This document shows, piece by piece, positions 10,934 through 58,541 of a DNA stretch of 64,000 nt. Below the pieces are notes generated by a model. That model made no database searches and had not been told where the DNA came from. It worked only from the letters and a program-made list of their open reading frames with translations. Both the position numbers and the translations under genes were made by a program. The DNA is from Candidatus Aminicenantales bacterium (GTDB lineage: Bacteria > Acidobacteriota > Aminicenantia > Aminicenantales > UBA4085). Positions within the stretch are counted from its first letter, which is position 1. Each line of letters starts with the position of its first letter. Location: assembly GCA_049515535.1 (NCBI GenBank), contig JBEKTZ010000010.1, forward strand, positions 1 through 64,000, given 5' to 3'.

Positions 10934-10964
10934 TCTTCTATACTAGACAATTATACACCTTTTA

Positions 10965-10992: not shown

Positions 10993-10999
10993 AATCAGC

Positions 11000-12304: not shown

Positions 12305-12354
12305 CTCTCGGCAAGCTCCGGCTTCGTGATAGACAGATGTGGCAAACTTCGGGA

Positions 12355-12990: not shown

Positions 12991-13475
12991 GAGTAATATT
13001 ATATCACAGTTCGAGAATTGCGATTTCCTTTTTCGTGTCGTACGGAACCCCGCCTCTCAAAATAACTTGCTCAAGAACTTTTTTAGAATATTTAGGGGCA
13101 GCCCAAGGTAATTTATTCAATATTCACAAGATCGTCCATCTTAAGCCTCCTTTTTCTTTCTTAGAAACCCATTTTTTCGTGCAATATTGCGGTAATAAGG
13201 TCTCCTCTTCTCGCGGAGAATCCAAATCCCCGTTTTCTGAAGACCGCGAGAATAGCGTGTATTAGCTCTGGGCATGAAATGTCTCTCTGCTTAGCGAGAC
13301 GTTTTCATCAATCGTTATTAATGGATAAGCCGTTATCCTTTAATAAGAACTGCGATAACTAAAATTTCTTTAATAAAAAAAGGCTTTCCGGCTTGAAATA
13401 CCTCTTGATAGATGTTACAATTAGTCGGCACATGTTGATAAATGTCAATATTAAGCAACGTTAGGGCGATGGACC

Positions 13476-35147: not shown

Positions 35148-36548
35148 TTACTTCGATTCTTCCTTGATCACTTCGCCGTAGACCGCGACCTGGTCCTTGA
35201 TCTTCTCGTAGTCGCCGACGATAAAGATCGTCATGTCCCCGCCGCGCAGGCGATCGGCGACGATTTTCTGGATTTCGGCCGGCGTGACCTTGAAGACGTT
35301 CCGGATATAGGTGCTCAGATAGTCCTTGCCCAACTCGTTCAGTCTCAGGTAATTCAGGATGCCGATGATTCCGTTCGGCGTCGAGTTTTGCAGGATGAAC
35401 GTTCCTGAAAACAGGTTCTTGATGCCCTTGAGCTCGGCCTCGGCAGGGGCCTCGTTCTTCAGACGGTCGATCTCGAAAAAGATTTCCTTTAGCGCGGCGC
35501 CCGTGACGTTCGTCGCGACGTCGGCCTGTTCGTACCAGCAGGCGTCCTTGTAGCGCCGGATGATGGCGCTGGTGGGCGAATAGGTGTAGCCCTTGTTCTC
35601 ACGGATGTTGCTCGTGATGCGCGAGGCAAAAGCTCCGCCGAGAAGCGTATCCGCCACTTCGAGGGCGATGAAATCCTCGTGGGCCGGCGGGATGACCGGC
35701 AGGCCGAGGAGGATGGTCGACTGCACCGAGCCCGGCCTGTCGAGGACATGGACTTTTCGGGCCGACTTCGGCGCCGGGACATTCGTCACCATCTCATTTC
35801 CCGCTTTCCAGTCTTTCAATGCCTCCCGGATCGCCTGTTCCGCTTTCCGCTCGTCGAAGACGCCCGCGATATAGAGATGGGTCCGCCGGGCGCCGTAGTT
35901 TTCCGCGTAAAATTTCTTGATCGTCGCGATCGTATAGCTCTGGATCCGGCTTTCCGACGGAAACGTCCGGCCGTAGGGATGGTCGCCGTAAAGGACGTGG
36001 AAAAAGCCGTCGCTGGCCAGCGAGGAGGGCTCGGATTTCGCGAGCGCGAGCCGGCGGAGATAGTTCGCCCGGATGCGCCCGAGCTCGGACTCCGGGAATT
36101 TGGGATTCTTCAGCATGTCCGCCAGCAGGCTCAGAAAATCCGGCACGAATTCGGAAAGCACGGTGCCGCTGAGACTGGACGTGTCGCTGCCCGCGCCCGC
36201 CGAAATCTCGCCGCCCATCGAGGCGGACGCCTCGGCGATTTCTTTCGCCGTGCGGGCCACGGTCCCTTCCTTGAGGAAATCAGCCGCCATGTCGGCGATC
36301 CAGACTTGGTCCGGGGCCTCATTGATGCTTCCGGCCCGGATGACAAACCTAATGCTCGCTTTGGGCACGCTCCCGTACCGGATCATGGAAACGCCCAGGC
36401 CATTCTCGAGGGTGAACGTTTTGACTTCAGGGATCTTGAAATCTCTGGGCTTTCCCCCTTCGGGCGGCGCGGCCTTGCGGGGCGAACAAGCGAACAGCGT
36501 CAAGGCCATGACGATCACGGCCCCTCCGGCGATGCGATGGATTTTCAT
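35148..36548 (-). CDS. M16 peptidase, non-catalytic subunit (lipoprotein)
   Basis: LENGL, HPYG, IRENKGYTY; no HxxEH; LFAC lipobox. Confidence 0.88.
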   Translation of the reverse strand: MKIHRIAGGAVIVMALTLFACSPRKAAPPEGGKPRDFKIPEVKTFTLENGLGVSMIRYGSVPKASIRFVIRAGSINEAPDQVWIADMAADFLKEGTVARTAKEIAEASASMGGEISAGAGSDTSSLSGTVLSEFVPDFLSLLADMLKNPKFPESELGRIRANYLRRLALAKSEPSSLASDGFFHVLYGDHPYGRTFPSESRIQSYTIATIKKFYAENYGARRTHLYIAGVFDERKAEQAIREALKDWKAGNEMVTNVPAPKSARKVHVLDRPGSVQSTILLGLPVIPPAHEDFIALEVADTLLGGAFASRITSNIRENKGYTYSPTSAIIRRYKDACWYEQADVATNVTGAALKEIFFEIDRLKNEAPAEAELKGIKNLFSGTFILQNSTPNGIIGILNYLRLNELGKDYLSTYIRNVFKVTPAEIQKIVADRLRGGDMTIFIVGDYEKIKDQVAVYGEVIKEESK

Positions 36549-36559
36549 GGTTGCCTTCC

Positions 36560-37933
36560 TCACTTTCCCGCCGCCTTCGTCTTCAGAATGACGACCGTCC
36601 TGTTCGAAGGCCGCAAATACTCCCGGGCCGTGCTTTGGATCAGCTCGGGCGTGACTTTTTTGAATTCGCCTTCGAGGGAATTCATCGTCTCCGGCTTGTC
36701 GTCGAACAAGGCGTAGCTGGCCAGCAGGTTGACCCGGCCTAAGCCGAAGGACCCGCCCAGCGCGTCATAGAAACCGGACCTGAATTTGATGAGGGCCCTG
36801 TCCAGGACGGCCTTGTCCACCGGCCTGGAGCGGAGCGATTCGATCTCGCCCTCGACCAGGGCGATGATCGCCTCGGGCGTGACGCCCGCATCGTGAATCA
36901 GGGAGGCCGACCAGAGCATGGGACCGTTATAATCGAACATATCGCCGAGATCTGCGTTGACCCCGCCGGAGACGGAATCCGTGATTCCTTTCTCCTGGAC
37001 GAGCTTCTGGTGGAACCGGCTGTCTTCCCCCTGGAGCAGGATCTGGTCGATCAGCCCCATGGCGAAGTAGGCGGGCGTGCCCCGCTCGGGCATATGATAG
37101 CCGAAAGCCAGGGCCGGCTTATTGGCCAGCGGATCGACACGCTCTTTTCGTTTCTCCTGTTCCTGCCGCGGTTCCCTGATGTCCGGAAGCGGAGGGAGCG
37201 CGGAGGCCGGGATCTTCGCGAAATATTTTTTGATCAGGACCAAAGCCCCGGCCGGCTCAAAGTCGCCCGCCACGATCAGGACGGCGTTGTTCGGGGCGTA
37301 ATAAGTCTTGAAGAAATTCCGGACATCGGCCAAATTGGCCGCCTCGATGTCCTTCACGTCGCCGTAGAAATTATGGGCGTTGAACCAATTCACGTTGGCC
37401 GCCTGCGGCAGGTCGAGCCAGGGGAATCCTCCATAGGGCTGGTTCTGGACGTTGACCTTGACCTCGTTGACGACGACGCCTTGCTGGTTCTTCAGGTTCT
37501 CTTCGGTGATGGCCAGGCCCCGCATCCGGTCGGCCTCGGCCCAGAGAACGGTCTCCAGGAAGTGGGCGGGGACGATCTCGTAGTAGTCCGTGAAATCGAA
37601 GCGCGTCGAGCCGTTGAGCGTCCCTCCGTTCCCTTCGATGAGCTTGATGAACTCCATCTTTCCCAGGTTCTCGGAGCCCTGGAACATCATATGCTCGAAA
37701 AGATGGGCGAACCCCGTCCGGTCCCTGGGTTCGATCCGGAACCCGATTTTATAATAGACGGCCACCGTGACGATGGGCGCGGTCTTGTCCACGGACAGGA
37801 CGACTTTCAGGCCGTTGTCGAGCTTGTGGTATTCGACGGGATAATCAAGGGCGGACACCCCGGCCGCGAGAGCCGTCAAGGCCAGGAAAACCGAAAGGAT
37901 CCGGAAAACGACAAATCGGCGGTGAATGGTCAA
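36560..37933 (-). CDS. M16 zinc peptidase, catalytic subunit
   Basis: GFAHLFEHMMF (HxxEH), YYAPNNA; signal peptide. Confidence 0.92.
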   Translation of the reverse strand: MTIHRRFVVFRILSVFLALTALAAGVSALDYPVEYHKLDNGLKVVLSVDKTAPIVTVAVYYKIGFRIEPRDRTGFAHLFEHMMFQGSENLGKMEFIKLIEGNGGTLNGSTRFDFTDYYEIVPAHFLETVLWAEADRMRGLAITEENLKNQQGVVVNEVKVNVQNQPYGGFPWLDLPQAANVNWFNAHNFYGDVKDIEAANLADVRNFFKTYYAPNNAVLIVAGDFEPAGALVLIKKYFAKIPASALPPLPDIREPRQEQEKRKERVDPLANKPALAFGYHMPERGTPAYFAMGLIDQILLQGEDSRFHQKLVQEKGITDSVSGGVNADLGDMFDYNGPMLWSASLIHDAGVTPEAIIALVEGEIESLRSRPVDKAVLDRALIKFRSGFYDALGGSFGLGRVNLLASYALFDDKPETMNSLEGEFKKVTPELIQSTAREYLRPSNRTVVILKTKAAGK

Positions 37934-39891: not shown

Positions 39892-41076
39892 ATGAATCTC
39901 CGAATGCGCCGTTTCAGCCTCCTCTGTTCTCTTTTTCTTTTGGCCGGGACCCTCGCTCCGGCGCCTGCCGAGCGCCAATCTCAATCGTCTCCGCCGAAGG
40001 AAAGCCGGAAAAGCGAAGCGCTCGCGCCGGGCATCGAGCATCTTGAAATTCTCCGGGGCGACTTCGCCTCGGAGCCAGGGACCGACCGCTGGATCATCAA
40101 CGTCCTCGTTGTCGAGCCGAAGAGCGGCCGGCTGACTCTGGCGCGGGCGTTGGATGAAGTCGTGGGCGCGGAGACGACGAGCTCGCTCGCGATCCGCCAC
40201 GGCGCCCTCGCCGCCGTGAACGGCGGCTATTTTCGGACGACCGGGACCTACCGCGGCGAGCCGGTCGGGATGCTCGAGCTCGACGGAAAAGTCCTGAGCG
40301 AGCCGAGCCTCCCCCGCTCGGAGCTCGCCATCACGAACGCGGGAGGCGCCGTCCGCATCGCCGTCGCGCAAATCGGCGTCAAGACCGAGATCGTCGCGGA
40401 CGGCCGGGAGACGCACGCGGCGGACGGCATCAACCGCCCCCGCGAAGAAAACGAGATGATCCTCTTCACGCCGGAATTCCATCGCACGACGCTGACCGAT
40501 CCCGGCGGCATCGAGATCATCGTCGAGCGCGGACGGGTGACCGCCGCGTTCGACGGCGAGGGCAGCCGGCCGATCCCTTCCGAAGGCTACGTTCTCTCAG
40601 CCGCGGGAGCGGCCGGCCGATGGGCGCGAGAACATCTTCGCTTCGGCGCCCGCGTCGAGGTCCGGACCGAAATCACGTCCCATCCTCCGCTGCCGTTCGC
40701 TCCCGAATTCATCATCGGAGGAGGGCCGCTCCTCGTGGCGGCGGGGCGGTCCCTGGCTGCGGCCGCGGCGAACGCCGAACAATTCAAGGCTGATTTCAGC
40801 CGGGCCCGCCATCCGCGGACGGCGGTCGGGGTCCGGGCGGAAGGTTCCCTGGTCTTCGTCACGGTCGATGGCCGCCAGCCGAAGAAGAGCGTCGGGATGA
40901 CCGTCGACGAGCTCGCGGGCCTGATGCTCGAGCTCGGCTGCGTCGACGCCATCAACCTCGACGGCGGCGGTTCGACGACGATGGTCGTCAAAGGCAGAGT
41001 CGTCAACAACCCCTCCGACACGACGGGCGAGCGGCCGGTGAGCGACGCCTTGCTTATTTTCCGGCGATGGACGTGA
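39892..41076 (+). CDS. Secreted phosphodiester glycosidase (NAGPA) family protein
   Basis: AVNGGYF, HPRTAVG, VDGRQ, NLDGGGST motifs. Confidence 0.88.
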   Translation: MNLRMRRFSLLCSLFLLAGTLAPAPAERQSQSSPPKESRKSEALAPGIEHLEILRGDFASEPGTDRWIINVLVVEPKSGRLTLARALDEVVGAETTSSLAIRHGALAAVNGGYFRTTGTYRGEPVGMLELDGKVLSEPSLPRSELAITNAGGAVRIAVAQIGVKTEIVADGRETHAADGINRPREENEMILFTPEFHRTTLTDPGGIEIIVERGRVTAAFDGEGSRPIPSEGYVLSAAGAAGRWAREHLRFGARVEVRTEITSHPPLPFAPEFIIGGGPLLVAAGRSLAAAAANAEQFKADFSRARHPRTAVGVRAEGSLVFVTVDGRQPKKSVGMTVDELAGLMLELGCVDAINLDGGGSTTMVVKGRVVNNPSDTTGERPVSDALLIFRRWT

Positions 41077-41135
41077 GGATTTGGCCCAATCCGGTCTAGC
41101 CCTAGGCCGCCGGGCTCAGGCCGGTCAGCCCCCTT

Positions 41136-43691
41136 TTAGGGGTTCTCGGTCGCGGCCCGTTGTCCCATTTCTTGGAGGGTCTTGGAGATTTCGATGAAAT
41201 GCTCGATCACTTCCGGGTCGAACTGCGTCCCGGAACAGCGGATAATCTCCTTGACCGCGGCGTTGTGGGTTTCCGCGTTCCGGTAGGGCCGATCCGAGGT
41301 GATGGCGTCATAGGTATCCGCGACGGCCATGATCCGGTCCCCGACCGGTATTTCCTGCCCCTTCAGCTTGTCCGGATATCCGCTGCCGTCGTAGCGTTCG
41401 TGGTGGTGGCGGACCAGCGTCATGATCTGCTGCAATTCGACGACGGGCTTGAGGATCGTCGCGCCGACGACCGGATGGTTGCGGATCTGAGCGAACTCCT
41501 CGTCGGTCAGCTTGGCCTTTTTGTTGAGAATCCGCTCCGAGATGGCAATTTTCCCGACATCGTGAAGGACCGCCGCCAGCTCCAGATCTTCGAGCTCCCG
41601 CTCTTGGAGCCCCATTTTCTTGGCGATCTTGAGGGAAATCTCCGTCACCCGGGAGGAATGGTCGCGCGTGTACTTGTCCTTGGCATCGAGCGCCGAGACC
41701 AGCGACTTGACCATCGACAGAAACAGTGTCCTCTGCCGTTCCACGAGGTCCTGGGTCCGCATCTTGAGATTCTGGTTGACGAGGGCGAGATCCGCCTCCG
41801 CTTTACGCATGCGCAGAAGCGACCGGATCCTTGCCTTCAACTCGACGGAATCGAAGGGCTTGGGAAGATAATCGTCCGCCCCGGACTCGATCCCCTCGGC
41901 GAGCATTTCGGCGCCGGACCTGGCTGTGACCAGGATGACGGGAATGTGCTTCAGCGCGTCATCTTCCTTGACCCTCCGGCAGAACGCATGACCGTCCATG
42001 CCGGGCATCATCACGTCGCTGAGGACGAGATCCGGCATGTTCTTCCTCATCAAGGTCAACCCTTCTTCCCCGGACGAGGCGATATCGAGATCGAACTCTT
42101 CGCTGAGCAACAGCTTCATCAATTTGAGGATTTCGGGATTGTCGTCGATGACCAGCACGCTGTATTCGTGAGTCCGGTCGCGGAACAGGGTCTCGGGACC
42201 GATCTCGATGCGCTCCAGGTCCACGAGCTGGAGCTTTCGGTAATCCGAAACGATGTCCTGGACCCGGGGAGGCTCCGCGTCGGAGACCCTTTTCTTGAAT
42301 GTGACGGGCATATCGGCCACGCGCCGGTCGAGGACGTCTTCCGAATAATGATCGTCGCCTTTGTGGATCTCCACCAGGAAGCGCGAGCCTTTCCCCATTT
42401 CGCTCTCGACGCGGATGACGCCGCCGTGGAGCTTGACGATTTCGCGGGCCAGGGAGAGACCGATGCCCGTCCCTTCATGGGCTCGGGAGAGGGAGCCGTC
42501 GACCTGGGAAAAGCGGTCGAAAATTGATTCTAGCATGTTTTGCGGAATGCCGATGCCGGTGTCTTCGACGGTCAGCAGGACGGTCGTTTTCTTCTCCTCG
42601 AGGTAGACCGTGATGCGTCCGTTTTCCGGCGTGAATTTCAGCGCGTTGGACAAGAGATTGAGGACGACCTTCTCGAAATTGTCGGGATCGAAGGTCAAGG
42701 GCACCTCATGGGGCGGGTGCTGAAAAAAGAGTTTGATGTCCTTGCGGTCGGCCAGCGGCCGGACCGAGGACAGGAGGGTGCTGAGGTACTCGGTGAAATC
42801 CAAAGTCCTGACCTTGAGCCTCATCTTCCCCTCCTCGAGCTTGGTCAGGTCGAGGAGGTTGTTGATGAGCTTCAAGAGTTTCAGACCGTTATGGCGGATG
42901 GTCTCGAGCGTGTCTTTCATCTTGGCCGAGACTCGTCCCATCTGCCCTTCGATCATGGGACCCAGGGGGGCCAGCATGAGGGTCAGCGGCGTCCTCAATT
43001 CGTGATTGACGTTGGCAAAGAATTGCGTTTTGAGCTCATCGAGGCTTTTCAGCTTGGCGTTCGATTTCTGCAACTGTTCCGTCGTCTCTTCGAGCTGGAT
43101 GCGGCTGCGGAGCTCGCGGCGGCGGATGTTGTCCATGACATAGGAGCCGGCGGCGCCGACGAGGATGATCGACGTCAGGAAAAAGAGGTTATTGACGACG
43201 AATCGCCATTCGCTGCCTTGAGGAATGCCGAGGGTGCCGCTGCGGCTCAGGTTGATGAAGCTGGGAATGGCGTAGCTGGTCCAAGTCAGAGCGAAGAGAA
43301 TGATGGATTCGCGGAAGGCCAGGGGGATGACGACGACCATGCCCATGACGATGATATTCAATCCCTGGTAATAACTGGTCAGGAATCCGCCCATGATCTG
43401 GATCATGATGGCGATGCCGATCGCATCAAAAACCACCATGGCCATGCCCAAGTTGATGTAACCGCGGTTGGTTTTAGTCCGGGTATATAAGAACAAAAGA
43501 AGGAAATGGAGTGCAACGACGACAAGGCGAATGATAAGGAAGAGCCGGAAGAACTGCGGCGTATAAACCCAATCCAGGATCAGGAAGGAAGGATAGAGGA
43601 CCATGCTGATATAGATGGCCAGCCTGGCCCTCCCTTTCATGTCATTCTCTTTATAAAGCCTTTCCTCAAAAACTTTTTTTTGGCTATCCAT
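41136..43691 (-). CDS. Membrane hybrid sensor: about 6 TM-HisKA-HATPase-REC-HD-GYP
   Basis: NHELRTPL, NLLSNALKFT, DTGIG, GTGIGL, SDVMMPGMDG, HDVGK, HHERYDGSGYP motifs. Confidence 0.92.
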   Translation of the reverse strand: MDSQKKVFEERLYKENDMKGRARLAIYISMVLYPSFLILDWVYTPQFFRLFLIIRLVVVALHFLLLFLYTRTKTNRGYINLGMAMVVFDAIGIAIMIQIMGGFLTSYYQGLNIIVMGMVVVIPLAFRESIILFALTWTSYAIPSFINLSRSGTLGIPQGSEWRFVVNNLFFLTSIILVGAAGSYVMDNIRRRELRSRIQLEETTEQLQKSNAKLKSLDELKTQFFANVNHELRTPLTLMLAPLGPMIEGQMGRVSAKMKDTLETIRHNGLKLLKLINNLLDLTKLEEGKMRLKVRTLDFTEYLSTLLSSVRPLADRKDIKLFFQHPPHEVPLTFDPDNFEKVVLNLLSNALKFTPENGRITVYLEEKKTTVLLTVEDTGIGIPQNMLESIFDRFSQVDGSLSRAHEGTGIGLSLAREIVKLHGGVIRVESEMGKGSRFLVEIHKGDDHYSEDVLDRRVADMPVTFKKRVSDAEPPRVQDIVSDYRKLQLVDLERIEIGPETLFRDRTHEYSVLVIDDNPEILKLMKLLLSEEFDLDIASSGEEGLTLMRKNMPDLVLSDVMMPGMDGHAFCRRVKEDDALKHIPVILVTARSGAEMLAEGIESGADDYLPKPFDSVELKARIRSLLRMRKAEADLALVNQNLKMRTQDLVERQRTLFLSMVKSLVSALDAKDKYTRDHSSRVTEISLKIAKKMGLQERELEDLELAAVLHDVGKIAISERILNKKAKLTDEEFAQIRNHPVVGATILKPVVELQQIMTLVRHHHERYDGSGYPDKLKGQEIPVGDRIMAVADTYDAITSDRPYRNAETHNAAVKEIIRCSGTQFDPEVIEHFIEISKTLQEMGQRAATENP

Positions 43692-46600
43692 GAATTTCCC
43701 TGACCTTCGCCACGACGATGTAGCCCTGCGGAGGATCGCCGAAAGAAGGAATCGTCTGGAGGGTTTCCCAGCCCGCTTCCTCCATCAGACCGCCCAGTTT
43801 CTCCGGGTCGAAAAAGTCGAAGGTCCCGGCCTCTTCCATCTCCACGAGGGCCTGGGCGTCGTTGAGGAAGGAACGGATGGATTCGAGGAGGATCTGTTTG
43901 GGCCGTTCCGGCGGAAGGTCCTCGGCGGGCGTGGCCTCGATCTTATCCACGAGCCGCGTGAAAAGACCCGAGGCGTCGGCGTCCGGACGCATGCTTGAAA
44001 GGACTAGCCGGCCGCCCGGGGCAATCATCCGCCTGATCTCAAGAAGCGTCTCGACGGGGTTGAAAATATAGGATAGAACCAGGCTCATCAGAATTTTATT
44101 ATAATGGCCGGCTTTGATCGGAAGATAGAGATTCTTCTCCAGGTCGTCCGAAAACACCAATTGACGGTAGGCGGGCGTCATCCGTTCGAGCCCCTGGACG
44201 AAGCGGGCAGCCAGATTGAAATCGAGGATCGTCCGAATCTCGGGGAGGTCGAAAGTCCGTTTCAGCCATTCCATGTGCTGGGGCGTGATTGCTTCGCCCC
44301 GCAGGATCCTGTGCAGCCGAGCCGAGTACAATTCCTCGATCCGGGCGGCGGTCTGGAAGGTCAAGTTTTCGATCCGATCCACGAGCTCCTTGAAGCCGGC
44401 CACTTCGCCGCGAAGGAATCGCCGGACCGGGAGGTACCGGTTCATCTCCACGTCGCCGGCCAAGGAATCAAAGAGGACCTTCGGCCCGGCCTTCCCGAAG
44501 AGCGGCCTCAACTTTCCCACGGCTTTGGCGATGCCTTCGGGCACGAGATCGGCGATCGTGATATGACCGGGCAGCGGAAGGCCGTTTTTGAGGAGATGTT
44601 CGATGAAGTTGCCGGTGCCGCCGCCGAGGTCCAAGAACCGGTCCGCGGGCTTGAGATCGAGGGCCAGGAGCTGGTCTTGCATGAGCTGTTGATAATCGTC
44701 CGACAAGGCCATGACGTCGAAGCCGATGAGTCTGTCCTCGCCGACGAGGTAGCGCTGCCAATAGTCCTGGCGATTCTTGATTTTTCGCGGCGGAATCCTG
44801 TCTTTCTCGACGCGGCGCATGACCTCCATGTCTTTTTTATTGGGAAGGACCGGCATGATCATGTCTTTATAGAGGAAGCGATGGATCAAAGACGTGATCG
44901 TCCCGAACAAGCGGAGCGCGTCTTCGGATGTCCGGGCGTTGTGGCCGATGGGAACCGGGATGACGTCGCGGGGAGCATCGGCCTGGATGCTCATGATATC
45001 CCGGATGAATTCGGCTTTGACCCAGTGATCGTGCTCGCCGAAGATCCACGTGACCGGGATGTCGATATGGCGCATGTCTTCTCTCGCCTGGTCCAAGGTC
45101 GCGACGGCATTGGCCACGCCGTCGGCAACGTAGGCGTCCACGTTGACGAGATTGCCCAGGACCGGCATGACGCCGAGCTTGATGCCGAGCTGGTATTGCT
45201 CCAGGAAGTCCAAGCCGCAGTTGATGCGGGTCATGAGATGGCGGAATTCCGGCGTGCCCATGCAGGAAATCCAGTAACCTATCCGGCGGCGATAGGCATC
45301 GTCCCTCAAGAGCAGCCGAGCGTCCAGGGCCGAGAGCGAAAAGCTGATGAGAATGACCGCGCTCGCCTTGAGCAGGGGATTGAGTTCGAGCCAATCCAGC
45401 ACGGCTTTGATATCCTCGGCGCCCTGAGTGAACGTGGAATTGATCATTTCATAGGGCGGGAACGACGCCTCGGGGTCCCTGTAGCTTTCTCCTTTACGCC
45501 TGATGCCGTCATAGCGGATGACCGCGATGGGCTTGCCTCGAGTATAAAAATTTTCGACGATCGTCTGGGCCAAAGCGAACAGGGTCTCCTTGGTTTTGCC
45601 GAAAGCGGGGGGGACGATGACGACGGGGATCGGGTCCTGATCCAACGGAAGGGAGAAATTCAAAAGGCCCGTGATCTCTTCGCCTTTTTTGTTTTCCAGG
45701 TGGATGACTTGAGGGGGCCTTTTCGCCAAAGCGCCGAGGTCGGACTGCCGCCTCGGCCCGGTCCGGAATTTTTCCGTGTCCTTCGTCTTGGGCTTTTCCG
45801 TTTGCGCGTCGAATTTCGGCATTTCCGAAGTATTGATCGTCAGGCGTCCCATGCCGAATTGCACGCCATATCTCAGGCGACCCGTCCCTTCTCTGTCGAT
45901 TTTAAAAATGTTCCGGATCTCTCCCCGGACTTCGCGGATAAGCTTCGCTTTGTGAAAAATCCGGATGGAATCCAGCGGCGTGCCGATCAGGAGAGCGATG
46001 TTCCTTGCCTCCGTGACGAAACTCACGCCCCCTTCGCTGATATCCGTAATCGTGCCCCGGATGGTCGCGCCGAAAGGATCGGGAAGGGAAATCTCCACGT
46101 CGAGGCGGCCGTCAGACTCCGCTCTCTTGAAAGACCGTTTCTCCGAGTAAAAGAGAATTCGCGGGTACAGGCATTCGAGGCTGCGCCCGTCGTCGCTGAT
46201 GCGATAGACGATCGTCTCGAAGGTATACGTGGCGTACCCGATTTGGAAGGAAATGAACAGGCTGTCCGACGTTTTGAACTTCGTGTCCAAGTCCTCGCCG
46301 GCCAAGCGGCAGAAATGCCAGGGCTCGACGGCCTCGAGTCGCAGCGTCGCGTGCGTTTTCTGCCGGGAATGAATGGCCGTGATCTCCGTTTGGGACCGCA
46401 GCGCTTCCGCGATCAATTCCACGATTTTAGCTTTGTCCGTAAAGTCGACGATCTTATCGACGCGAAGGAAAGGATACTTCTCCTTCAGCTCGGAAAGGCT
46501 GCTTTTCATGTACTGATCGGACAGAAACCGGACCAGGGCGCGGCGGCCGTCATCCTCGATCAGGAGAAATTTTACGCCGACCCCGCCGATCTCTTCATCG

Positions 46601-47277
46601 ACGCGGACGACGCGTCCGGTCGCAAGCAACGGAGGTCCCTCCGGCAGGAAGATCTTGAACGGCAGGATGTAATTCTTGGGCAGGATCGTCCTGACGAACA
46701 TCCCGCTCTCGCTCAGATTTTCCACGGAGGCCTTCCCGTGCCCGCCCATGTCGACTTCGATGTCGTAATCGCCGTTAATCGCCGCCCGCATGATCCGGCG
46801 CTTCTCCCTGGACTTTTGGGCGATCAGCGAGCCCATGAGCTGTTTGAGCTTGGCCGGATCGAACGGCCGATCGTAGTGATAATCGATCCGCCCCAGGAAC
46901 GGATCGCCAAGCTCCGTTTCCGGAGCGCCGGGCTCCGAAATCAGGATCTTCACGATCTGTTCGGGTTTCTCCACCATTTCGTTGACATAACGGAACAGAA
47001 GCGCGCCGCCGTTTCCCGTGACCGATTGGTCGACAAGAAGGGCATCGATCGATCCGAGATTTTTCAGGAGCTGGATGGCCTCTCGCCCGCCGTTCGCCGT
47101 TTGAACCGCATAATCCGGTTCCATGACGGATTTCAAGGCCGCGAGCCACGAAGGATTGTCGGTGACGGCCAGAACGACCGGTTTGGAGGAGACCACGGGA
47201 TCGAGGTTTTTCACGGCCTTCTTTTCGTCAAGAAACGAATGGTCAAAACTCGCCACTTCCTTTATAAGATGCTCCAT
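43684..47277 (-). CDS. Multidomain REC-PilZ-PilZ-LuxD-like alpha/beta hydrolase-SAM methyltransferase
   Basis: LLVDQ REC; RRIMR...NLSESG and RSFKR...DISEGG PilZ motifs; VIRYD, SFSLSA, DHWVK, GH hydrolase; LDLGGGTG MTase; start uncertain (47277 or 47409). Confidence 0.8.
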   Translation of the reverse strand: MEHLIKEVASFDHSFLDEKKAVKNLDPVVSSKPVVLAVTDNPSWLAALKSVMEPDYAVQTANGGREAIQLLKNLGSIDALLVDQSVTGNGGALLFRYVNEMVEKPEQIVKILISEPGAPETELGDPFLGRIDYHYDRPFDPAKLKQLMGSLIAQKSREKRRIMRAAINGDYDIEVDMGGHGKASVENLSESGMFVRTILPKNYILPFKIFLPEGPPLLATGRVVRVDEEIGGVGVKFLLIEDDGRRALVRFLSDQYMKSSLSELKEKYPFLRVDKIVDFTDKAKIVELIAEALRSQTEITAIHSRQKTHATLRLEAVEPWHFCRLAGEDLDTKFKTSDSLFISFQIGYATYTFETIVYRISDDGRSLECLYPRILFYSEKRSFKRAESDGRLDVEISLPDPFGATIRGTITDISEGGVSFVTEARNIALLIGTPLDSIRIFHKAKLIREVRGEIRNIFKIDREGTGRLRYGVQFGMGRLTINTSEMPKFDAQTEKPKTKDTEKFRTGPRRQSDLGALAKRPPQVIHLENKKGEEITGLLNFSLPLDQDPIPVVIVPPAFGKTKETLFALAQTIVENFYTRGKPIAVIRYDGIRRKGESYRDPEASFPPYEMINSTFTQGAEDIKAVLDWLELNPLLKASAVILISFSLSALDARLLLRDDAYRRRIGYWISCMGTPEFRHLMTRINCGLDFLEQYQLGIKLGVMPVLGNLVNVDAYVADGVANAVATLDQAREDMRHIDIPVTWIFGEHDHWVKAEFIRDIMSIQADAPRDVIPVPIGHNARTSEDALRLFGTITSLIHRFLYKDMIMPVLPNKKDMEVMRRVEKDRIPPRKIKNRQDYWQRYLVGEDRLIGFDVMALSDDYQQLMQDQLLALDLKPADRFLDLGGGTGNFIEHLLKNGLPLPGHITIADLVPEGIAKAVGKLRPLFGKAGPKVLFDSLAGDVEMNRYLPVRRFLRGEVAGFKELVDRIENLTFQTAARIEELYSARLHRILRGEAITPQHMEWLKRTFDLPEIRTILDFNLAARFVQGLERMTPAYRQLVFSDDLEKNLYLPIKAGHYNKILMSLVLSYIFNPVETLLEIRRMIAPGGRLVLSSMRPDADASGLFTRLVDKIEATPAEDLPPERPKQILLESIRSFLNDAQALVEMEEAGTFDFFDPEKLGGLMEEAGWETLQTIPSFGDPPQGYIVVAKVREIHG

Positions 47278-47589
47278 CGGTATAGTCGAGGAGCCTGCGC
47301 CCAAATTGACACGACATCTAAATATAAGACCCTGGCATCTATCCAATACTATATATGGTGGGTACCCTTTTGTCAAATATATCAGACGCTTTTTCCGGTT
47401 TCCGGCCATGCCTGGCCCCTGAGCCCAAAGCTTGTTCGCGGAGACGAATGTTCATATAATTCATAAAAGAATGAAATCTCTCCGGATATCCTTCATCCTC
47501 GGCCTCTTGATCGGGAAAATTTCTTCTGAAAAATCTGACCTTGGGCAATATCAGGGGAGAAAAGATTCGGAGAGAGAGAAATCCTTCCT

Positions 47590-48798
47590 ATGACGATCGA
47601 CGGTTATAAATCGAGAGCACGCGCCGCTCCCGACATCATCGTGGACCCGAGCACCCTCTTTCCTCCGCTCAGCGGGGTGGGATATTACACCCGGGAGATT
47701 CTCAAGGCCTATTGCGGACTCCCGGGACATTTTCCGGTCAAGCTCCTTTCCTTTCGGTTTTTTTTGAAGTCCGGGCGCCGTCCCCCGGAAGCCGATATCG
47801 AACGTCTGGCCGAAAGCTGGGGAGGATCGCTCGACGTTCGATTCCGGCCCGTTCCCAGCCTGGTCTACGGCTGGCTCCGACGCCGCGGCTTGCGGCCGCC
47901 GTTCCCCCTGGATATGTTCGAGTCCAGCGCGCAAAAAATATATTTTTTCCCGAACTTCGTGGGAGAGCCCCTGCTTCGCGCCCGTTATGTCCCGGTCGTC
48001 TTCGATGTCGGTTTCCTCCGCCATCCCGGCAGCCAGCAGAACCGTGACCACCTCTATTTGAAAAGATATTTGCCGAGGGCTTTGAGACGAGCGAGCCGGG
48101 TCGTCGTGATCTCGGAATGCGTCAAGTGGGAGCTCCAGAAGGCGTACGATGTCCCGGCCGATAAAATCGCGGTCATCACCCCCGCCGTCGATCATGCCGC
48201 TTTCCGTCCGGATATCCCCGCTGAAGTCCGGGCCGCCGTCCGGGAGAAATACGGCCTCGGCGGCGGCTATATCTTTTCTTTGAGCACTCTCGAGCCCAGA
48301 AAAAATTTTCCCCGGCTGATCGAGGCCTATTCCTTGTTGCCCGGCGACGCCCAGACGCGCCTGCCTCTTGTGGTCGCGGGCGGGAGCGGATGGAAGAACG
48401 AAGAAATCTACGCGACGATCCGGCGCCTCGGCCTGGAAAAAAAGATCAAATTCCTCGGCTATATTTCCGAAATGGACCGCGCTCCCTTGATGAGGGAAGC
48501 CGCGCTTTTCGTCCTGCCTTCGCTCTATGAAGGATTCGGCATGCCCGTCCTGGAGGCGATGGCCTGCGGAACTCCGGTCGTGACATCGGCGCGCGGGGCG
48601 ATCCCGGAGATCGGAGGCGACGCCGTCGTCTATGCCGATCCCCTCCGCGCCGAAAGCATCGCCCGGAGCATCACAACCGTGCTTGAAGATCGGGATCTGA
48701 GAACGAGGCTCTCGGCTTCAGGTATTTCCCGGGCGGCTTCTTTTCGATGGCTGGAAAGCGCCCGCGGCCTCGCGGACGTTTTTGAACGCGTCGCGTAA
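47590..48798 (+). CDS. Glycosyltransferase family 4
   Basis: LEPRKN, PSLYEGFGMPVLEAMACG motifs. Confidence 0.92.
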   Translation: MTIDGYKSRARAAPDIIVDPSTLFPPLSGVGYYTREILKAYCGLPGHFPVKLLSFRFFLKSGRRPPEADIERLAESWGGSLDVRFRPVPSLVYGWLRRRGLRPPFPLDMFESSAQKIYFFPNFVGEPLLRARYVPVVFDVGFLRHPGSQQNRDHLYLKRYLPRALRRASRVVVISECVKWELQKAYDVPADKIAVITPAVDHAAFRPDIPAEVRAAVREKYGLGGGYIFSLSTLEPRKNFPRLIEAYSLLPGDAQTRLPLVVAGGSGWKNEEIYATIRRLGLEKKIKFLGYISEMDRAPLMREAALFVLPSLYEGFGMPVLEAMACGTPVVTSARGAIPEIGGDAVVYADPLRAESIARSITTVLEDRDLRTRLSASGISRAASFRWLESARGLADVFERVA

Positions 48799-48889: not shown

Positions 48890-51850
48890 TTATTTTTTCT
48901 CCGGAGCAGGAGCAGGCGCGGGAACGGGAGCGGGATTCAGATTCTTGAAATTCAGCATGGCGTTGAAAACAAGGAAAAACGATCCATGCGTCTCATGACG
49001 CCACATGGGATTGAAGCTGAACATGATCACGTGACCCGCCCCGAGCGGCGCGTCCACGAGAGCCGGCGCGCCGGCCAGCTCCTGGCCTCCGTCCAATCCG
49101 CCGCTGATGAGGAGTTCGGCGGCATTGCCGGTGAATCTGAGAATCGTCCTCGCTCTCGAAGCCGCGGCGGGCGGGCCCGGCCGGCCTTCGGCCTGAGCGC
49201 CTTGCGGCTGAGTCTTCCGGAATTCCTCGACGGACGCCTTCCCGATATCCCGGGGCCGGCCTTGCGGAATGTCGGGGTCATTGGCGCTGCCGCGGCCCGA
49301 CGGACGGCCGGCGGGGCCGCTCTCGAGCATCATTCCTCCCCGGCCTCCGCCGAAACCTCCGCCCGCGCCGAATACCGGCGCCTGGCTGAAATAAACGCCC
49401 AGGGAATCGTCATATCCGTAGACGATGGGGCTTGTTTTATCGAATACATCGGCTTTGTATATGCTTCCGCGCGCCCAGAGGTTCTGGGTCTGGCGGATGG
49501 AAATCCCTCCGGCCAGGCCGAACTGGATGGGAAGCGCCGAGCTATTGCCGAGCGTGATGAACAAGCCGCCGTCTCTGATGAAATCACGCAAATGGAGCAC
49601 GCCCTCCAGCTCGATCCCGCCGCGCATATCGTCGGTGGAATCCTCGGAGCCGATATTGGGAGTGAGCGGCGTCTTCTTCCAGGGGATCGGCTGGGCGCCG
49701 GTGACGCCCGTGACGACGCTCAGGGCGTCCCCCGAGGACGGCCCGAAAAGAATCACGTCATATTTATCGCGGAGCCGCGCGTTGTCGCGGACGGAATGAA
49801 CCGAAATGTATTCATAGGGAATCTCAAGCTCGTCGAGCGCGATGCGCACCCAGCCCTCGGTCTGCGTGTTCTGCCAGGTGTGCATGACGGCGATGCGCGG
49901 CACGGCCACCTCGTGGACGGCGACGGCCGGAACGGCCGGAACCGCGAAAATGGAGAGGCCGTATTTCTTCCCGCTCTCGTCCAGCAGGCTTTCGATGTTC
50001 CCCCCGTTATCGACGATTTTAATGATGAACGTCCCGGCGTTGAACGATTTGCCGTTCGATTCGAAACTTTTTTCCGCGGCCAGGATCTTCAGGTCTTTAT
50101 ATTTGAACCGGAAGGAGGCGATGGCGTTGTCCGCGTTGTGGTTAATCAGGAAGACCTGCGCGGCGCCGGCGCCCAGGTGCGTCACGCCGCCGGGTGAGCG
50201 GACTTCGCCCTTGACCTGCGTCATCGGAGCGGAGAGCACGGAGACATCGTCCACGCGCACCGTTTTCACATTGAAGAGCGGCCCCAGCGTCCAGCCAACA
50301 TCATCGTAAGGAGAAGGATCCTTGACGTTGAAATATTGCTTGTCGAGAAGCATGTCCGCCATCCGGCAAAACGGTTGGTCCATGCGGATGACATAGCTCG
50401 CGGCGGGATATTCGACGTCGCCGACTTTGAAAGCCTTGTCGGCCTTGTGCACTTCCACGCCCTGGCCCTGCAGGAGCCGCAAAAGGCGCGCCTGTTGTCC
50501 GAGGCGCGGGTCATTGCCGGGAAAGACATAGGCGGCCGGGCCTTCATTCCTGGGCTTGGCCACGGAGCGCTTGCTTTTCAGGTAGAAATTTTCCAGGTAT
50601 TTTTCGCGGTTCACGGCGATATAGTTCATGCCCATGAGAAGGGCGCTCTGCTGCATATTGACGTTGTTGCGGATCGACCAGACCGTGGACGCCACGGGCG
50701 GGTTCGGACGGTACCAGGCCCGGTCCGTGCTGTTGGTGATCACCCGCGTGCTCCCGTCGCCCGCGCCCTGCGTCTCATAGAACCGGCCGATAGCGTTGTG
50801 TCCGTTGGCCGCGTAGAACGCATAGTTGGGCGCCCAGCCGTCGTAGAACGCGTGGGTCCAGACGCCGGGAACGCCTTCCCGGGTCATGCCGTCCACTTCC
50901 TGGTAGGCCAGTTGGTGCCACTCGTCGACGACGATCGGGTCCAGCCAGGCGTTGTAGGGGCCCGAACCCGTCGAGATGTAAAGGTGCGAGGCGGATTCGT
51001 GGAGGTCATGCATCACCTGGGGATGATAATCGAGCTCGACCTTCATGATGTTCCGGCTGAGCGCCAGGGCGAGGACGATGCCGTCCCGGTTGTTGTCGTG
51101 GGCGACGTATTTTCCCCACCAGAGAGCGTTCCGCGGCACGTTGGCCTTGGGGTCCTTGCGCGGGGCCATGGCCAAATCGACGTATTTATCGCGTCCGTCC
51201 ACCTCGAGGATGGGCGTGATCAGGACGATGGAGTTTTCGCGGATGGTCTTGATGAACGGAGAGTCGTCCACCGCCAGGCGGTACGCGAGTTCCATCAGCA
51301 TCTCGACCGAGCCGGTCTCGGAGGAATGCATGCCTCCCGTCGCCCAGTAGATGGGCTTGCCCTGCTTGATCAAGGTCTGCGCCTCGGCATCGCTGATCTT
51401 CCGCGGATCGCTCAGCTTAGCGATGATTTGCTTGAATTGGCTCAGGTTCTTTATGGTCCCCTCATCGGCGACGACGACTAGGATCCAATCCCTCCCCTCC
51501 TCGGTCTTGCCGATCGTGAAGACCTTGACTCTCGGCGACGCCGCGGCGAGGGCCCGGAAATATTTATAGACGTCGCTGGAATAGCTCAGGATGTTGGGCG
51601 CTCCCACGATATGCCCGAGGACTTCAAGCGGCGAGGGAATCCCCTCTTTATAGGGAAGATAGTTCACGTATTTCGTGGAGAAATGAGGATCGGTCGTATA
51701 CTCCCGGATCTTCTTCGTATAGTCCTCATGGATCTTCTGAGGGAAAGCGACGGAAAAGACAAGCAGCAACGCCAGGCCGAGGGCCAGGGGCGCTTTGACG
51801 GCCCTCGTTCGACGTACGAAACAAATGACGGCTTTGGGAAATGATGTCAT
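48890..51850 (-). CDS. Secreted M14 family zinc carboxypeptidase
   Basis: HSSE, DNNRD, DLHE motifs; signal peptide; RBS AGGAGG. Confidence 0.85.
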   Translation of the reverse strand: MTSFPKAVICFVRRTRAVKAPLALGLALLLVFSVAFPQKIHEDYTKKIREYTTDPHFSTKYVNYLPYKEGIPSPLEVLGHIVGAPNILSYSSDVYKYFRALAAASPRVKVFTIGKTEEGRDWILVVVADEGTIKNLSQFKQIIAKLSDPRKISDAEAQTLIKQGKPIYWATGGMHSSETGSVEMLMELAYRLAVDDSPFIKTIRENSIVLITPILEVDGRDKYVDLAMAPRKDPKANVPRNALWWGKYVAHDNNRDGIVLALALSRNIMKVELDYHPQVMHDLHESASHLYISTGSGPYNAWLDPIVVDEWHQLAYQEVDGMTREGVPGVWTHAFYDGWAPNYAFYAANGHNAIGRFYETQGAGDGSTRVITNSTDRAWYRPNPPVASTVWSIRNNVNMQQSALLMGMNYIAVNREKYLENFYLKSKRSVAKPRNEGPAAYVFPGNDPRLGQQARLLRLLQGQGVEVHKADKAFKVGDVEYPAASYVIRMDQPFCRMADMLLDKQYFNVKDPSPYDDVGWTLGPLFNVKTVRVDDVSVLSAPMTQVKGEVRSPGGVTHLGAGAAQVFLINHNADNAIASFRFKYKDLKILAAEKSFESNGKSFNAGTFIIKIVDNGGNIESLLDESGKKYGLSIFAVPAVPAVAVHEVAVPRIAVMHTWQNTQTEGWVRIALDELEIPYEYISVHSVRDNARLRDKYDVILFGPSSGDALSVVTGVTGAQPIPWKKTPLTPNIGSEDSTDDMRGGIELEGVLHLRDFIRDGGLFITLGNSSALPIQFGLAGGISIRQTQNLWARGSIYKADVFDKTSPIVYGYDDSLGVYFSQAPVFGAGGGFGGGRGGMMLESGPAGRPSGRGSANDPDIPQGRPRDIGKASVEEFRKTQPQGAQAEGRPGPPAAASRARTILRFTGNAAELLISGGLDGGQELAGAPALVDAPLGAGHVIMFSFNPMWRHETHGSFFLVFNAMLNFKNLNPAPVPAPAPAPEKK

Positions 51851-51891
51851 GACTCTCCTCCTTCCAGGATGATGAAAACCGTAGGCCTAGA

Positions 51892-51991
51892 AACTTATCA
51901 CCTGTAATGAAACCCTGTCAATAGCGGATTCGCTGACCGTACTGCGGTCAGCGTATTCGCATTGACAGCGATGAAGGGCGGGGGGTATAGT
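51892..51991. promoter_or_regulatory. Back-to-back sigma70-like promoters around a long palindrome
   Basis: TTGACA on both strands (51916-21 minus, 51962-67 plus), each 18 nt from a -10 box, flanking CGCTGACCG-TACTG-CGGTCAGCG. Confidence 0.55.
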
Positions 51992-52106
51992 TTCTCCTCA
52001 TCAGAATGGATTTCTTGGCCCGATGAAAAAACTCCTATCACTTGCAACCTAAAGGTATCTCGTTCCGTATTATAAGATGGATGATTTTAAGTTCCGGGAG
52101 GTATTC

Positions 52107-55100: not shown

Positions 55101-55406
55101 TTGATGGGCGAATGCGATTACTCTGACGCCCATCTGTTCCCGGTGCTCTACAAGATCAAGAGTCTGGGGAAAACGCTGGGCATGCCCGTGCCCGGAACCG
55201 GGACGTTCGTCTGGTGGGAGATGCAGATCGACCCGACCCTGCGGTTCGGGATTCCCCAGGGCGGCTGGCGGGCGCCGGAGGGCTGGCTCTGCGAAAACCA
55301 TCAGTTGGAGCCGGACATCCTCGTCAAGAACGATCCGGATGTCATGTCGACCGGCCGCGACCAGCAGATCGAAGCGGCGGTGAAGGAGTTGATGAAGAAG
55401 AAGTAG
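52107..55406 (+). CDS. Tricorn-like S41 protease
   Basis: LRYPAISPD, PD40 propellers, ELNASH, PDZ, DTRFNGGG, YSDA motifs. Confidence 0.92.
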   Translation: MKSTAARISQSLFVFSVLTAILLCSSPLQAQETPLWLRYPAISPDAQTILFCYKGDIYKVPASGGQAVPLTISDAYDYAPVWSHDGHSIAFASDRYGNFDVFVMPASGGEAKRLTCHSAADIPSSFTADDQRVLFTSTRQDLVTNAQFPMSVFPELYSVSVNGGEAALVLTQPAIAATVNPAGDKIIYHDQKGYESEWRKHHTSSVTRDIWVYDQKTKKNTQLTTFKGEDRNPVFDVNGDDYYYLSEQNGSFNVTKSSLSRPASSTALTGFAKHPVRFLTRSNGGVFCFGFDGEVYTKSGNAAPRKIDIRIAQDGRRVLERTVPVSGGITEMRLAPNGKEIAFVFRGEIFVSSVEGGVTKRITDTPWQERSVSFSPDGRTLVYAAEKDNNWNVYTASIVRKEEPYFYASTVLKTDTVVATPAEEFQPEFSPDGKEVAYLENRVVLKVANLATKQTRTILPAECNYSYSDGDQSYQWSPDGKWFLVQYGYVRLFTPEIGLVSSDGKGKVINLTQSGFDNFNPRWGMDGKMLYWGCTRDGSVGVAGNPSTFDIFGMFFTKDAYDRFKLSKEDFALLKEQEDKAKEDKDKAEKEKAKEAKPKDAKDAAVKKAEDAFKDIVIEWDGLNERKAKLTIHSADISDQVITKNGEKLFYLARFEKGYDLWVTELRTRDTKLFSKLGASNAGLELSADGKSLFVLADGRVTKIDPESGKTDAVAINGEMALDQTAEKAYMFDHMWRELKQKFYLADLHGVDWDFYYAAYKKFLPSIANNYDYAEMVSELLGELNASHTGCYYSGSRTPTSDRTDSLGLFIDYDYAGPGLKVAEILASGPLDKANLKIRAGHVIEKIDGRAIVGSFDHYALLNRKAGKLILLSVYDPASQTRWEETVKPFTGGEENLCLYLRWVRNRRAEVDRLSGGRLGYVHVQSMDDASLRVVIEEALGKGIDKDALIVDTRFNGGGNTHEQLSDFLSGKKSFEILPRGQSVGYEPYNKWIKPSIVLMGECDYSDAHLFPVLYKIKSLGKTLGMPVPGTGTFVWWEMQIDPTLRFGIPQGGWRAPEGWLCENHQLEPDILVKNDPDVMSTGRDQQIEAAVKELMKKK

Positions 55407-55428
55407 GCCGGTGTCGCGAGGAGAAAAT

Positions 55429-56841: not shown

Positions 56842-56916
56842 TTCACGCCCCCGCCCGGTCAAGTCAAACGAGCTTACTCTTTGGAAGACGCTCGGCTCAT
56901 ACACCCCGCCCGCGGT

Positions 56917-58404: not shown

Positions 58405-58541
58405 TTTGACCTCCGCGATACCCGGGGGAATTATAAAAGCGTTCAACGTCATTAGCAAGGCTCGCCCGAAGAATTCAAAACTCTCCTGTTTTTAAACCCT
58501 TCGGATCATCTTCCGTATCATAGAGTGAAGGAGGTTGTTTC

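Follow-up and report, generated by a model that had tools for sequence, protein, structure and literature searches.

What do two overlapping genes of Candidatus Aminicenantales bacterium, one for a large enzyme and one for a membrane kinase, make and sense together? The question is raised by a locus at positions 41136 to 47277 of a 64,000-nucleotide stretch of contig JBEKTZ010000010.1 (GenBank assembly GCA_049515535.1), herein referred to as the window. The two genes are named here gene A, which combines receptor domains for cyclic di-GMP (c-di-GMP) with a hydrolase and a methyltransferase, and gene B, which combines a membrane sensor kinase with a c-di-GMP phosphodiesterase domain. The original prediction for this DNA proposed a fatty acid or methyl ester signalling operon, with synthase, receptor and phosphodiesterase compressed into a closed loop. 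The explanation preferred here, with a probability of about 0.5 for all of its parts taken jointly, is that this stretch is a two-gene operon and that the A-B pair is the short form of a widespread, c-di-GMP-gated cluster for an acyl-derived small molecule, with a feedback loop.

Domain composition of genes A and B

Both genes are encoded on the minus strand:

43684..47277, minus strand: gene A, 1197 amino acids from Met45, with a REC-like domain, PilZ, a beta-rich domain, PilZ, a LuxD-like hydrolase and a class I S-adenosylmethionine (SAM) methyltransferase
41136..43691, minus strand: gene B, 851 amino acids, with a membrane sensor, HisKA, HATPase, REC and HD-GYP
43684..43691, minus strand: overlap of 8 nucleotides between the stop of A and the start of B, letters ATGGATAG

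In the overlap ATGGATAG, the ATG of gene B begins at 43691, and the TAG of gene A occupies 43686-43684. Residues of A are numbered herein by its longest frame (43684..47409 in the list of open reading frames), in which position 47277 corresponds to Met45. The catalytic part of A consists of two domains:

44830..45717, minus strand: LuxD-type alpha/beta hydrolase, residues 565-860, with the putative triad S691, D794 and H823 (Pfam, profile and fold comparisons)
43687..44775, minus strand: class I SAM methyltransferase, residues 879-1241, interrupted after motif I by an insertion of about 120 residues (Pfam and fold comparisons)

The LuxD family of Pfam (Acyl_transf_2, PF02273) was found at residues 628-807 with 23.2 bits, a narrow margin over the cut-off of 20.3. 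A does not qualify as a LuxD equivalog, since the NCBIfam model for it scored 20.1 bits, where 420 are required. In a profile comparison with the PDB, LuxD (1tht) was matched at E 1.4e-5, with S691 placed on S114 and D794 on D211, which we take to be, together with H241, the catalytic triad of LuxD. This alignment stops before H823, which is invariant among the homologues. S691, D794 and H823 are each kept in 121/121 Aminicenantes sequences, the set used throughout for residue conservation in A. For the methyltransferase, the Methyltransf_23 family matched residues 910-1218 with 51.8 bits, in two segments (926-967 and 1091-1145). In motif I (DLGGGTG, 927-933), G930 is present in 120/121 homologues and each of the other six residues in 121/121; D954, the acidic residue after strand 2, is also kept in 121/121.

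The last 677 residues of A were modelled from an 80-sequence alignment with a mean predicted local distance difference test (pLDDT) value of 95.0 and a predicted template modelling score (pTM) of 0.92, so the hydrolase and the methyltransferase are predicted as one rigid body. Modelling shows LuxD as the nearest solved fold of the hydrolase. It ranked first in Foldseek (E 6.5e-14, TM 0.81 on the target) and was the top VIA match of the hydrolase (Z 28.4, root-mean-square deviation 2.6 Å, 274 of 293 residues; next entry 24.8). The next-best hydrolase folds in VIA were feruloyl esterases, a PETase-type esterase and monoacylglycerol lipases (Z 23-25). The best VIA match of the methyltransferase was 6f5z_B (Z 20.7, model residues 315-677), and its fold matches at Z 19-20.7 were Hvo_0019, OxaG, YcgJ, toxoflavin N-methyltransferase, phosphoethanolamine methyltransferase and RebM. 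In one relative (L037, 5045-8369, genome G342), the A-like gene is split into a PilZ-hydrolase frame of 662 amino acids and a methyltransferase frame of 461 amino acids that share an overlap of 50 nucleotides, so the halves of A can be encoded separately.

The N-terminal half of A carries four further domains:

46810..47178, minus strand: receiver-like domain, residues 78-200 (predicted receiver fold; sub-threshold in Pfam)
46522..46803, minus strand: PilZ domain 1, residues 203-296 (Pfam, 35.6 bits; cut-off 22.5)
46144..46521, minus strand: conserved helix and beta-barrel domain between the PilZ domains, residues 297-422 (model pLDDT about 75-92)
45856..46143, minus strand: PilZ domain 2, residues 423-518 (Pfam, 30.2 bits; cut-off 22.5)

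The c-di-GMP-binding motifs of PilZ domains are RxxxR and (D/N)xSxxG. Both were found in each PilZ domain (PF07238) of A, as R204/R208 with N231/S233/G236 and as R425/R429 with D456/S458/G461. Conservation of these residues among the homologues is high: R204, R208 and G236 are kept in all 121 sequences, S233 in 115 and N231 in 113; in the second domain, R425 and G461 are kept in 121, D456 and S458 in 119, and R429 in at least 98%. Judged by their residues, both domains are canonical and are predicted c-di-GMP receptors. The two were scored separately, and a genome search returned the same coordinates for both. No Pfam match was found for residues 297-422 at E up to 10, the PilZN/YcgR families included. 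A model of the first 501 residues (mean pLDDT 78.5, pTM 0.53) has the order receiver, PilZ barrel, helix-plus-barrel domain and second PilZ. The Response_reg score of the receiver-like domain (19.8-24.1 bits) is below the Pfam cut-off of 30.2; its modelled fold matches 3nhm_B with Z 17.9 and a deviation of 1.6 Å over 115 residues. The fold search with this model, which returned a list full of receiver domains, bears on the receiver only.

Gene B contains the following domains:

43107..43691, minus strand: membrane sensor, residues 1-195, with about six transmembrane segments and very short loops
42363..43031, minus strand: HisKA and HATPase_c core, residues 221-443, with the histidine at H230 (Pfam)
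41823..42158, minus strand: receiver, residues 512-623, with acceptor D559 (Pfam Response_reg, 97.8 bits)
41208..41702, minus strand: HD-GYP domain, residues 664-828 (Pfam HD_5, 147 bits; genome search concurs)

A hydropathy scan placed about six hydrophobic segments within residues 24-187. Pfam located HisKA at 221-288 and HATPase_c at 335-443; H230 is conserved, as are the glycine motifs for ATP binding (DTGIG and GTGIGL). In 38 aligned B sequences, including those of the divergent clade described below, the invariant residues are D517, D559 and K611 of the receiver, H710, D711, H763, E765, G769, G771, Y772 and P773 of the HD-GYP domain (motifs HD and HHExxDGxGYP), and D40, R55, G102, Y107, G110 and L111 of the membrane domain. 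No HPt family was found in B (Pfam, E≤0.1); the HD-GYP domain occupies that place. The MASE8 family (PF20968) had no match in B of the window at E≤10 and reached 13.1 bits, against a cut-off of 26.2, in the orthologue P0138; precomputed domain lists assign PF20968 to most B orthologues. A word-based search with the membrane domain of B against shorter proteins gave 14 matches, all fragments or cut genes, and no other architecture carrying this domain was found among them. A complex prediction for residues 25-505 of A (counted from Met45) with residues 495-851 of B scored 0.00 against a mark of 0.32, which gives no answer and counts neither way. In total, the overlap of 8 nucleotides and all the domains that the original prediction had listed for the two genes were borne out, REC of A by its predicted fold.

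Linkage of the pair and its wider family

Gene A was found in 10 of 401 genomes sampled across the phylum, and all 10 belong to the window's own order. A survey of 246 genomes of this order gave A in 93 and B (E≤1e-120) in 92: both genes are present in 89 genomes, A alone in 4 and B alone in 3. Of the 93 genomes with A, 76 have B immediately downstream of it and 5 have B farther off. In the other 12, the contig carrying A showed no B downstream on the strand of A, several of these A matches being partial or on short contigs. Additionally, 80 further species-genome loci were analyzed (kept out of 181 confirmed, nearly all from Aminicenantes). B follows A in 71 of them, and the remaining 9 end at most 273 nucleotides past A. 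Genes flanking the pair vary between loci. The A-B linkage is near-obligate, and the co-occurrence elsewhere on which the original prediction depended was found. No relative was found in a first genome-contig scan with a single A protein; an alignment-based scan found relatives. In a plasmid collection, no match to the hydrolase-methyltransferase part was found by tblastn at E≤1e-10.

The window's genome contains 3 GGDEF, no EAL and 9 HD_5 matches. Its PilZ domains number 5, distributed over 4 frames, and A accounts for two of these domains. Another compact c-di-GMP module was found in the same genome outside the window: GGDEF and PilZ lie in one frame of 679 amino acids (G000:C8:76186-79728), with an HD_5 gene about 2 kb downstream.

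A search with the hydrolase-methyltransferase part against 1.84 billion cluster representatives gave 741 matches at E≤0.001 and 331 at E≤1e-30, the latter being clusters at 50% identity. Among 36 family representatives scanned, the methyltransferase was found in 36, PilZ in 23 and a REC match in 2. The named members belong to metagenome-assembled genomes labelled Bradymonadales, Alkalispirochaeta, Myxococcota and Nannocystis; no isolates were found among the named members of 20 representative clusters, all of which are metagenome-assembled. Similar fusions are present in the ESM Atlas in Verrucomicrobiota, Omnitrophota, Nitrospirota and Myxococcota.

Gene contexts of the distant members were taken from a genome search around G630 and from a metagenome scan. 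The long form of the family, observed across phyla, comprises an A-like enzyme, a fatty-acyl-AMP-ligase-like enzyme, a carrier protein, a B12 radical SAM enzyme and a membrane kinase, the last often with HD-GYP. In a divergent clade of the same order (G342, G432, G433 and G227), the A-like proteins have 31-35% identity and lack the receiver-like domain, and three genes are located between the A-like and B-like genes. One encodes an AMP-binding enzyme nearest to long-chain-fatty-acid-CoA ligase (score below cut-off), another a carrier protein of 87 amino acids (PP-binding, 47 bits) and another a B12-binding radical SAM enzyme, nearest to HpnJ with a score below cut-off and also near a lipid-biosynthesis B12 radical SAM family. 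In the distant genome G872, these genes recur in a different arrangement, and the C-terminal domain of the kinase is a second HATPase instead of HD-GYP. The membrane domain of B aligns with the kinases beside the A-like genes of G872 and G711 at 33-34% identity, starting at residue 11 for G872 and at residues 11-23 across the two genomes.

Among 80 metagenome loci of distant members, the ligase was found in 36 and the membrane kinase in 36. The carrier gene accompanies the ligase in 31 of 36 loci and is present in none of the 44 loci without it. In 32 of the loci, 6 kb of sequence were available downstream. Of these, 20 have a transmembrane kinase, including 12 with the ligase, the radical SAM enzyme, the kinase and HD-GYP, 2 with the ligase, the kinase and HD-GYP, and 1 with the kinase and HD-GYP directly. 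This wider family is a new result that goes beyond the original prediction, and no description of the PilZ-hydrolase-methyltransferase or of its cluster was found in open-access papers and bioRxiv.

Trees of the enzyme and of the kinase core were built by quick IQ-TREE searches (LG+G4); both are unrooted, and gain and loss of the extra genes cannot be read from them. The enzyme tree has 72 rows, with 28 of the 80 metagenome loci left out (gene cut or too short) and 13 two-gene loci hand-picked from many. The two-gene type forms one clade (14/14 rows, support 100), and the cluster type needs 9 changes on this tree versus 39.1 in shuffles. The kinase-core tree has 41 rows, two picked loci with no single long frame being dropped, and contains the same sub-clades; therefore, enzyme and sensor have largely travelled together. 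One locus, L039, is placed differently in the two trees, so some exchange of parts is possible.

Three groups of loci were noted beside these trees. A two-gene A-B pair with 48% and 51% identity was found in a 7-Mb genome labelled Myxococcota (L086, 8929-15026); it is sister to the Aminicenantes clade in both trees and could be a case of gene transfer, or a binning or labelling matter. The A-type loci without a kinase (L134, L135, L143, L180, L187, L189, L194, L196, L197, L199, L202 and L207) are split between two clades in the enzyme tree, and in nine of the twelve no match to the N-terminal region of A of the window was found. Lone B-like kinases (L212, 8262-10886, minus strand; L213, 7836-10481, plus strand; L214, 7843-10434, plus strand) have 36-37% identity, the same membrane domain and HD-GYP. 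Their neighbours are not conserved, and their host genomes also carry an A-B pair. In the kinase tree, the three form one clade inside the ligase-type kinases, next to the kinases of the five-gene clusters.

At the locus itself, the genes flanking the pair are on the opposite strand, so A and B form a unit. Upstream of A is a divergent GT4 glycosyltransferase (47590-48798, plus strand), and downstream of B is a convergent NAGPA-family gene (39892-41076, plus strand). One further feature is located at the 5' end of A:

47348..47376, minus strand: sigma-70-like promoter candidate, TTGACA-17-TATAGT, with 11/12 matches, 71 nucleotides upstream of 47277

Met45 (47277) is the likelier start of A, because database homologues of the same gene have 1197 amino acids, because homologues align only from about residue 48, and because the promoter-like site lies inside the longer frame. 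The last of these is a weak pointer, since one such site was found in 40900-47700 and shuffles average 2.3, a count that is not significant. No Rfam match was found at E≤1 within 40900-47800, thus there is no known riboswitch upstream. In public sequencing runs, part of the stretch was found in 24 DNA runs, with at least half of the sampled words in 2; no RNA runs were listed.

Elsewhere in the window, a region that includes DNA of low G+C content (8066-15010; 0.41-0.48 at 10-14 kb) carries defence-type genes: an Eco57I/MmeI-like fused restriction-modification enzyme (8066-10933), beside it an AAA_14/DUF4143 ATPase (11000-12304), and an AbiEi/AbiEii toxin-antitoxin pair (13476-14072 and 14024-15010). 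The surroundings of the pair are rich in peptidases (35148-37933 and 48890-58458), with two M16, one M14, one M64 and a tricorn-like S41 with PD40 repeats, as well as an amidohydrolase.

Proposed mechanism and alternative explanations

A would be a soluble enzyme whose activity is put under c-di-GMP control by its two PilZ domains. Its hydrolase most likely takes an acyl group from a thioester (acyl-ACP, acyl carrier protein), and the methyltransferase, rigidly attached, most likely methylates the released product; in the simplest case, a fatty acid methyl ester would be formed. The HD-GYP domain of B would set the c-di-GMP level that is read by A. On signal, B would phosphorylate its own receiver and thereby switch this phosphodiesterase; for a REC-HD-GYP phosphodiesterase, activation of c-di-GMP hydrolysis by phosphorylation is described in passages of bioRxiv 10.1101/2021.11.05.467447. 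The likeliest input of the membrane sensor is the hydrophobic product of A or a closely related compound; with this input, a feedback loop comparable to those of Rpf/DSF or Phc would be closed. This loop would be negative if c-di-GMP activates A and self-amplifying if c-di-GMP inhibits A.

We infer, with good support, that A makes an acyl-derived, methylated product under c-di-GMP control, and it is plausible that B senses this product; the substrate, the product itself, the sign of the control by c-di-GMP and the ligand of B are also what we infer. In the relatives, the ligase, the carrier protein, the radical SAM enzyme and the kinase together match the layout of an acyl small-molecule pathway with its own sensor. 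The signalling-operon reading of the original prediction has thereby gained from the co-occurrence of the genes, from the conserved catalytic and c-di-GMP-binding residues and from the acyl-pathway clusters of relatives, while its closed loop has been weakened.

Several observations weigh against the preferred explanation. The first four of them are those that weaken the loop: 12 of the 32 loci with room downstream have no kinase, ligase or radical SAM enzyme, 5 of the 20 kinase partners and also the partner in G872 lack HD-GYP, lone B-like kinases occur in three genomes, and 13 of 36 family representatives gave no PilZ match (E≤0.001). At its acceptor position, the receiver-like domain of A has N in 60 and D in 39 of the 121 homologues, the window copy having D127; therefore, this domain mostly cannot be phosphorylated. 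The cluster contains no exporter. No ligase, carrier protein or radical SAM enzyme is present in the cluster of the window, no close ligase homologue was found in its genome, and no carrier-like frame was found in any of the 80 two-gene Aminicenantes loci, so the chemistry of the short form may differ from that of the long form. Given the esterase and lipase folds at Z 23-25, the modelled hydrolase could possibly act on an ester rather than a thioester, and the methyltransferase resembles only generic small-molecule class I enzymes, so O-, N- and C-methylation cannot be told apart. Finally, kin are not independent, and the co-occurrence counts overstate the number of independent events.

The main rival, unlikely as we judge it, is a circuit for membrane-lipid homeostasis. 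B would sense the state of the membrane or a lipid from outside without binding the product of A specifically, and A would remodel a retained lipid or acyl pool, so that the product would be no message. The sensor of B, almost wholly membrane-embedded with short loops, suits sensing of the bilayer as well as of a ligand. The lack of an exporter, the A-type enzymes without a kinase in 12 of 32 loci, the B-like kinases without A nearby and the radical SAM enzyme, whose nearest families (HpnJ and the lipid-biosynthesis B12 radical SAM family) are lipid-tailoring, also favor such a circuit. However, the sensor is inherited with the enzyme across phyla while the output varies, which fits a cognate ligand and receptor better, and the presence of a private ligase and a private carrier protein points to a small, dedicated product and not to bulk lipid.

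A second alternative concerns the methyl ester. In BioC/BioH-type masking, a class I methyltransferase (BioC) works together with an esterase of the alpha/beta hydrolase class (BioH). If A worked in a similar way, the ester would be added and later removed, and the end product would be a tailored acid or diacid. This is improbable: the faint match of A to the BioC equivalog of NCBIfam (TIGR02072) has 16.1 bits, far below the cut-off of 185, and although esterases are the second-best structural matches, the best sequence and fold match of the hydrolase is LuxD, a thioesterase. A carrier protein in the long clusters and the automatic annotation of one relative as 'pimeloyl-ACP methyl ester ...' would suit masking, but the predicted rigid fusion of the two domains (pTM 0.92) fits consecutive steps better than steps separated in time.

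Still less probable is mere co-expression, with A as one c-di-GMP output among several and B as one phosphodiesterase among nine, the two exchanging nothing specific apart from the common pool. The 9 HD_5 and 3 GGDEF matches of the genome are in line with it; against it, adjacency is kept in 76 of 93 and 71 of 80 loci while the flanks change, the trees are congruent, and the linkage reaches phyla whose kinase is without HD-GYP. We regard as very improbable a CheR/CheB-like methylation and demethylation of B or another protein by A, with its receiver phosphorylated by B: a receiver-like domain, a hydrolase and a methyltransferase encoded beside a kinase, and D127 kept in the window copy, would suit this function, but A has no CheR or CheB family match (Pfam, E≤0.1) and a hydrolase of LuxD fold, the acceptor Asp is missing in most homologues and the receiver-like domain in the divergent clade (REC in only 2 of 36 representatives), and a protein substrate would leave the ligase, the carrier protein and the radical SAM enzyme without a purpose.

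The c-di-GMP-gated acyl cluster thus remains the preferred explanation. A bolder version of it, short of probable and put forward tentatively, would set a third class of fatty-acid-type signalling, cell-cell or autocrine, next to diffusible signal factor (DSF) and Phc: in this class, a gated assembly line would make a volatile or membrane-soluble methyl ester that acts through a six-helix kinase on c-di-GMP. If this is true, the assembly line would consist of the ligase, a private carrier protein, B12 radical SAM tailoring, LuxD-type release and methylation, and signal synthesis and second-messenger level would hold each other in a closed loop. The class would span several mostly uncultured phyla, with the Aminicenantales pair as its minimal two-gene form.

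Known outputs of c-di-GMP include the control of motility, adhesion and polysaccharide secretion; a conserved enzyme whose acyl or lipid chemistry is controlled directly by PilZ would be an output of a new kind. The cluster is a candidate for a new lipid signal together with its receptor. Its hosts, Aminicenantes and other phyla, are known mostly from metagenomes of peat, sediment and groundwater, and to our knowledge no signalling chemistry is known in them.

Comparison with known systems

LuxD of Vibrio harveyi (PDB 1THT), a myristoyl-ACP thioesterase, is the best PDB match of A in both sequence and fold, and the nucleophile elbow FSLSA of A aligns with ASLSA of LuxD. Identity is only 16-17%, the hydrolase domain of A shares its chain with a methyltransferase and c-di-GMP receptors, and the neighbourhood of A contains no lux genes.

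Enzymes gated by PilZ are represented by the BcsA cellulose synthase, Alg44 and PixB of Myxococcus, in which PilZ is in the same polypeptide as, or against, the catalytic domain. PixB consists of two PilZ domains plus an acetyltransferase. Architectures of PilZ fusions have been reviewed (bioRxiv 10.1101/814665), and in the relevant passages of this review the hydrolase-methyltransferase output of A is not among the fusions given. PixB is also named in PMC8316039.

The fusion order of the catalytic part of A is shared by proteins of about 580 amino acids named 'bifunctional alpha/beta hydrolase / class I SAM-dependent methyltransferase', mostly from Pseudomonadota and listed at scores of 0.91 in a feature search of the ESM Atlas. 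These proteins carry Hydrolase_4 and Methyltransf_20 without PilZ and are set apart from A by family labels, not by alignment. No paper under this protein name was found in open-access literature and bioRxiv.

In Xanthomonas, DSF signalling reportedly uses RpfF, RpfC and RpfG, and in Ralstonia the product of PhcB is said to be sensed by PhcS. The Phc system (phcBSRQ) and the A-B pair have in common a methyltransferase and a kinase in one operon. According to sections of PMC8578825, the Phc signal is a fatty acid methyl ester made by a SAM methyltransferase; it is sensed by a histidine kinase that the operon also encodes, and the sequences of synthases and of sensors cluster according to signal type. 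In the A family as well, clades recur between the enzyme tree and the kinase tree. The same sections do not describe for Phc the thioesterase domain, PilZ and HD-GYP present in A-B. No family named after PhcB was found among the NCBIfam matches of A at E≤0.1, a check made by name only.

The Rpf/DSF system of Xanthomonas has the same roles as the A family: a thioesterase-type synthase, an acyl ligase, a membrane hybrid kinase and a REC-HD-GYP protein. RpfC consists of a multi-pass membrane sensor, HisKA, HATPase, REC and a C-terminal HPt domain; in contrast, B lacks HPt, and its kinase and HD-GYP are fused in one protein. With RpfG, B shares REC with the acceptor Asp followed by HD-GYP, but fused to the kinase. 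In four loci (L162, L164, L170 and L177), kinase-REC and REC-HD-GYP are separate genes, which resembles the RpfC/RpfG split. Acyl-ACP thioesterase activity is reported for RpfF in parts of PMC13660987, a role of the fatty-acyl ligase RpfB in signal turnover in parts of PMC9040794, and detection of a fatty acid by the membrane hybrid kinase of the DSF system in passages of bioRxiv 10.1101/2022.01.03.474871. Unlike RpfF, gene A has no crotonase (enoyl-CoA hydratase) match in Pfam or NCBIfam at E≤0.1 and therefore is not of the RpfF family. Of the two synthases, only that of gene A carries PilZ domains and a methyltransferase, and in the long form of its family the synthase is accompanied by a private carrier protein and by a B12 radical SAM enzyme. 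The layout of the A family is parallel to Rpf/DSF, without homology to RpfF.

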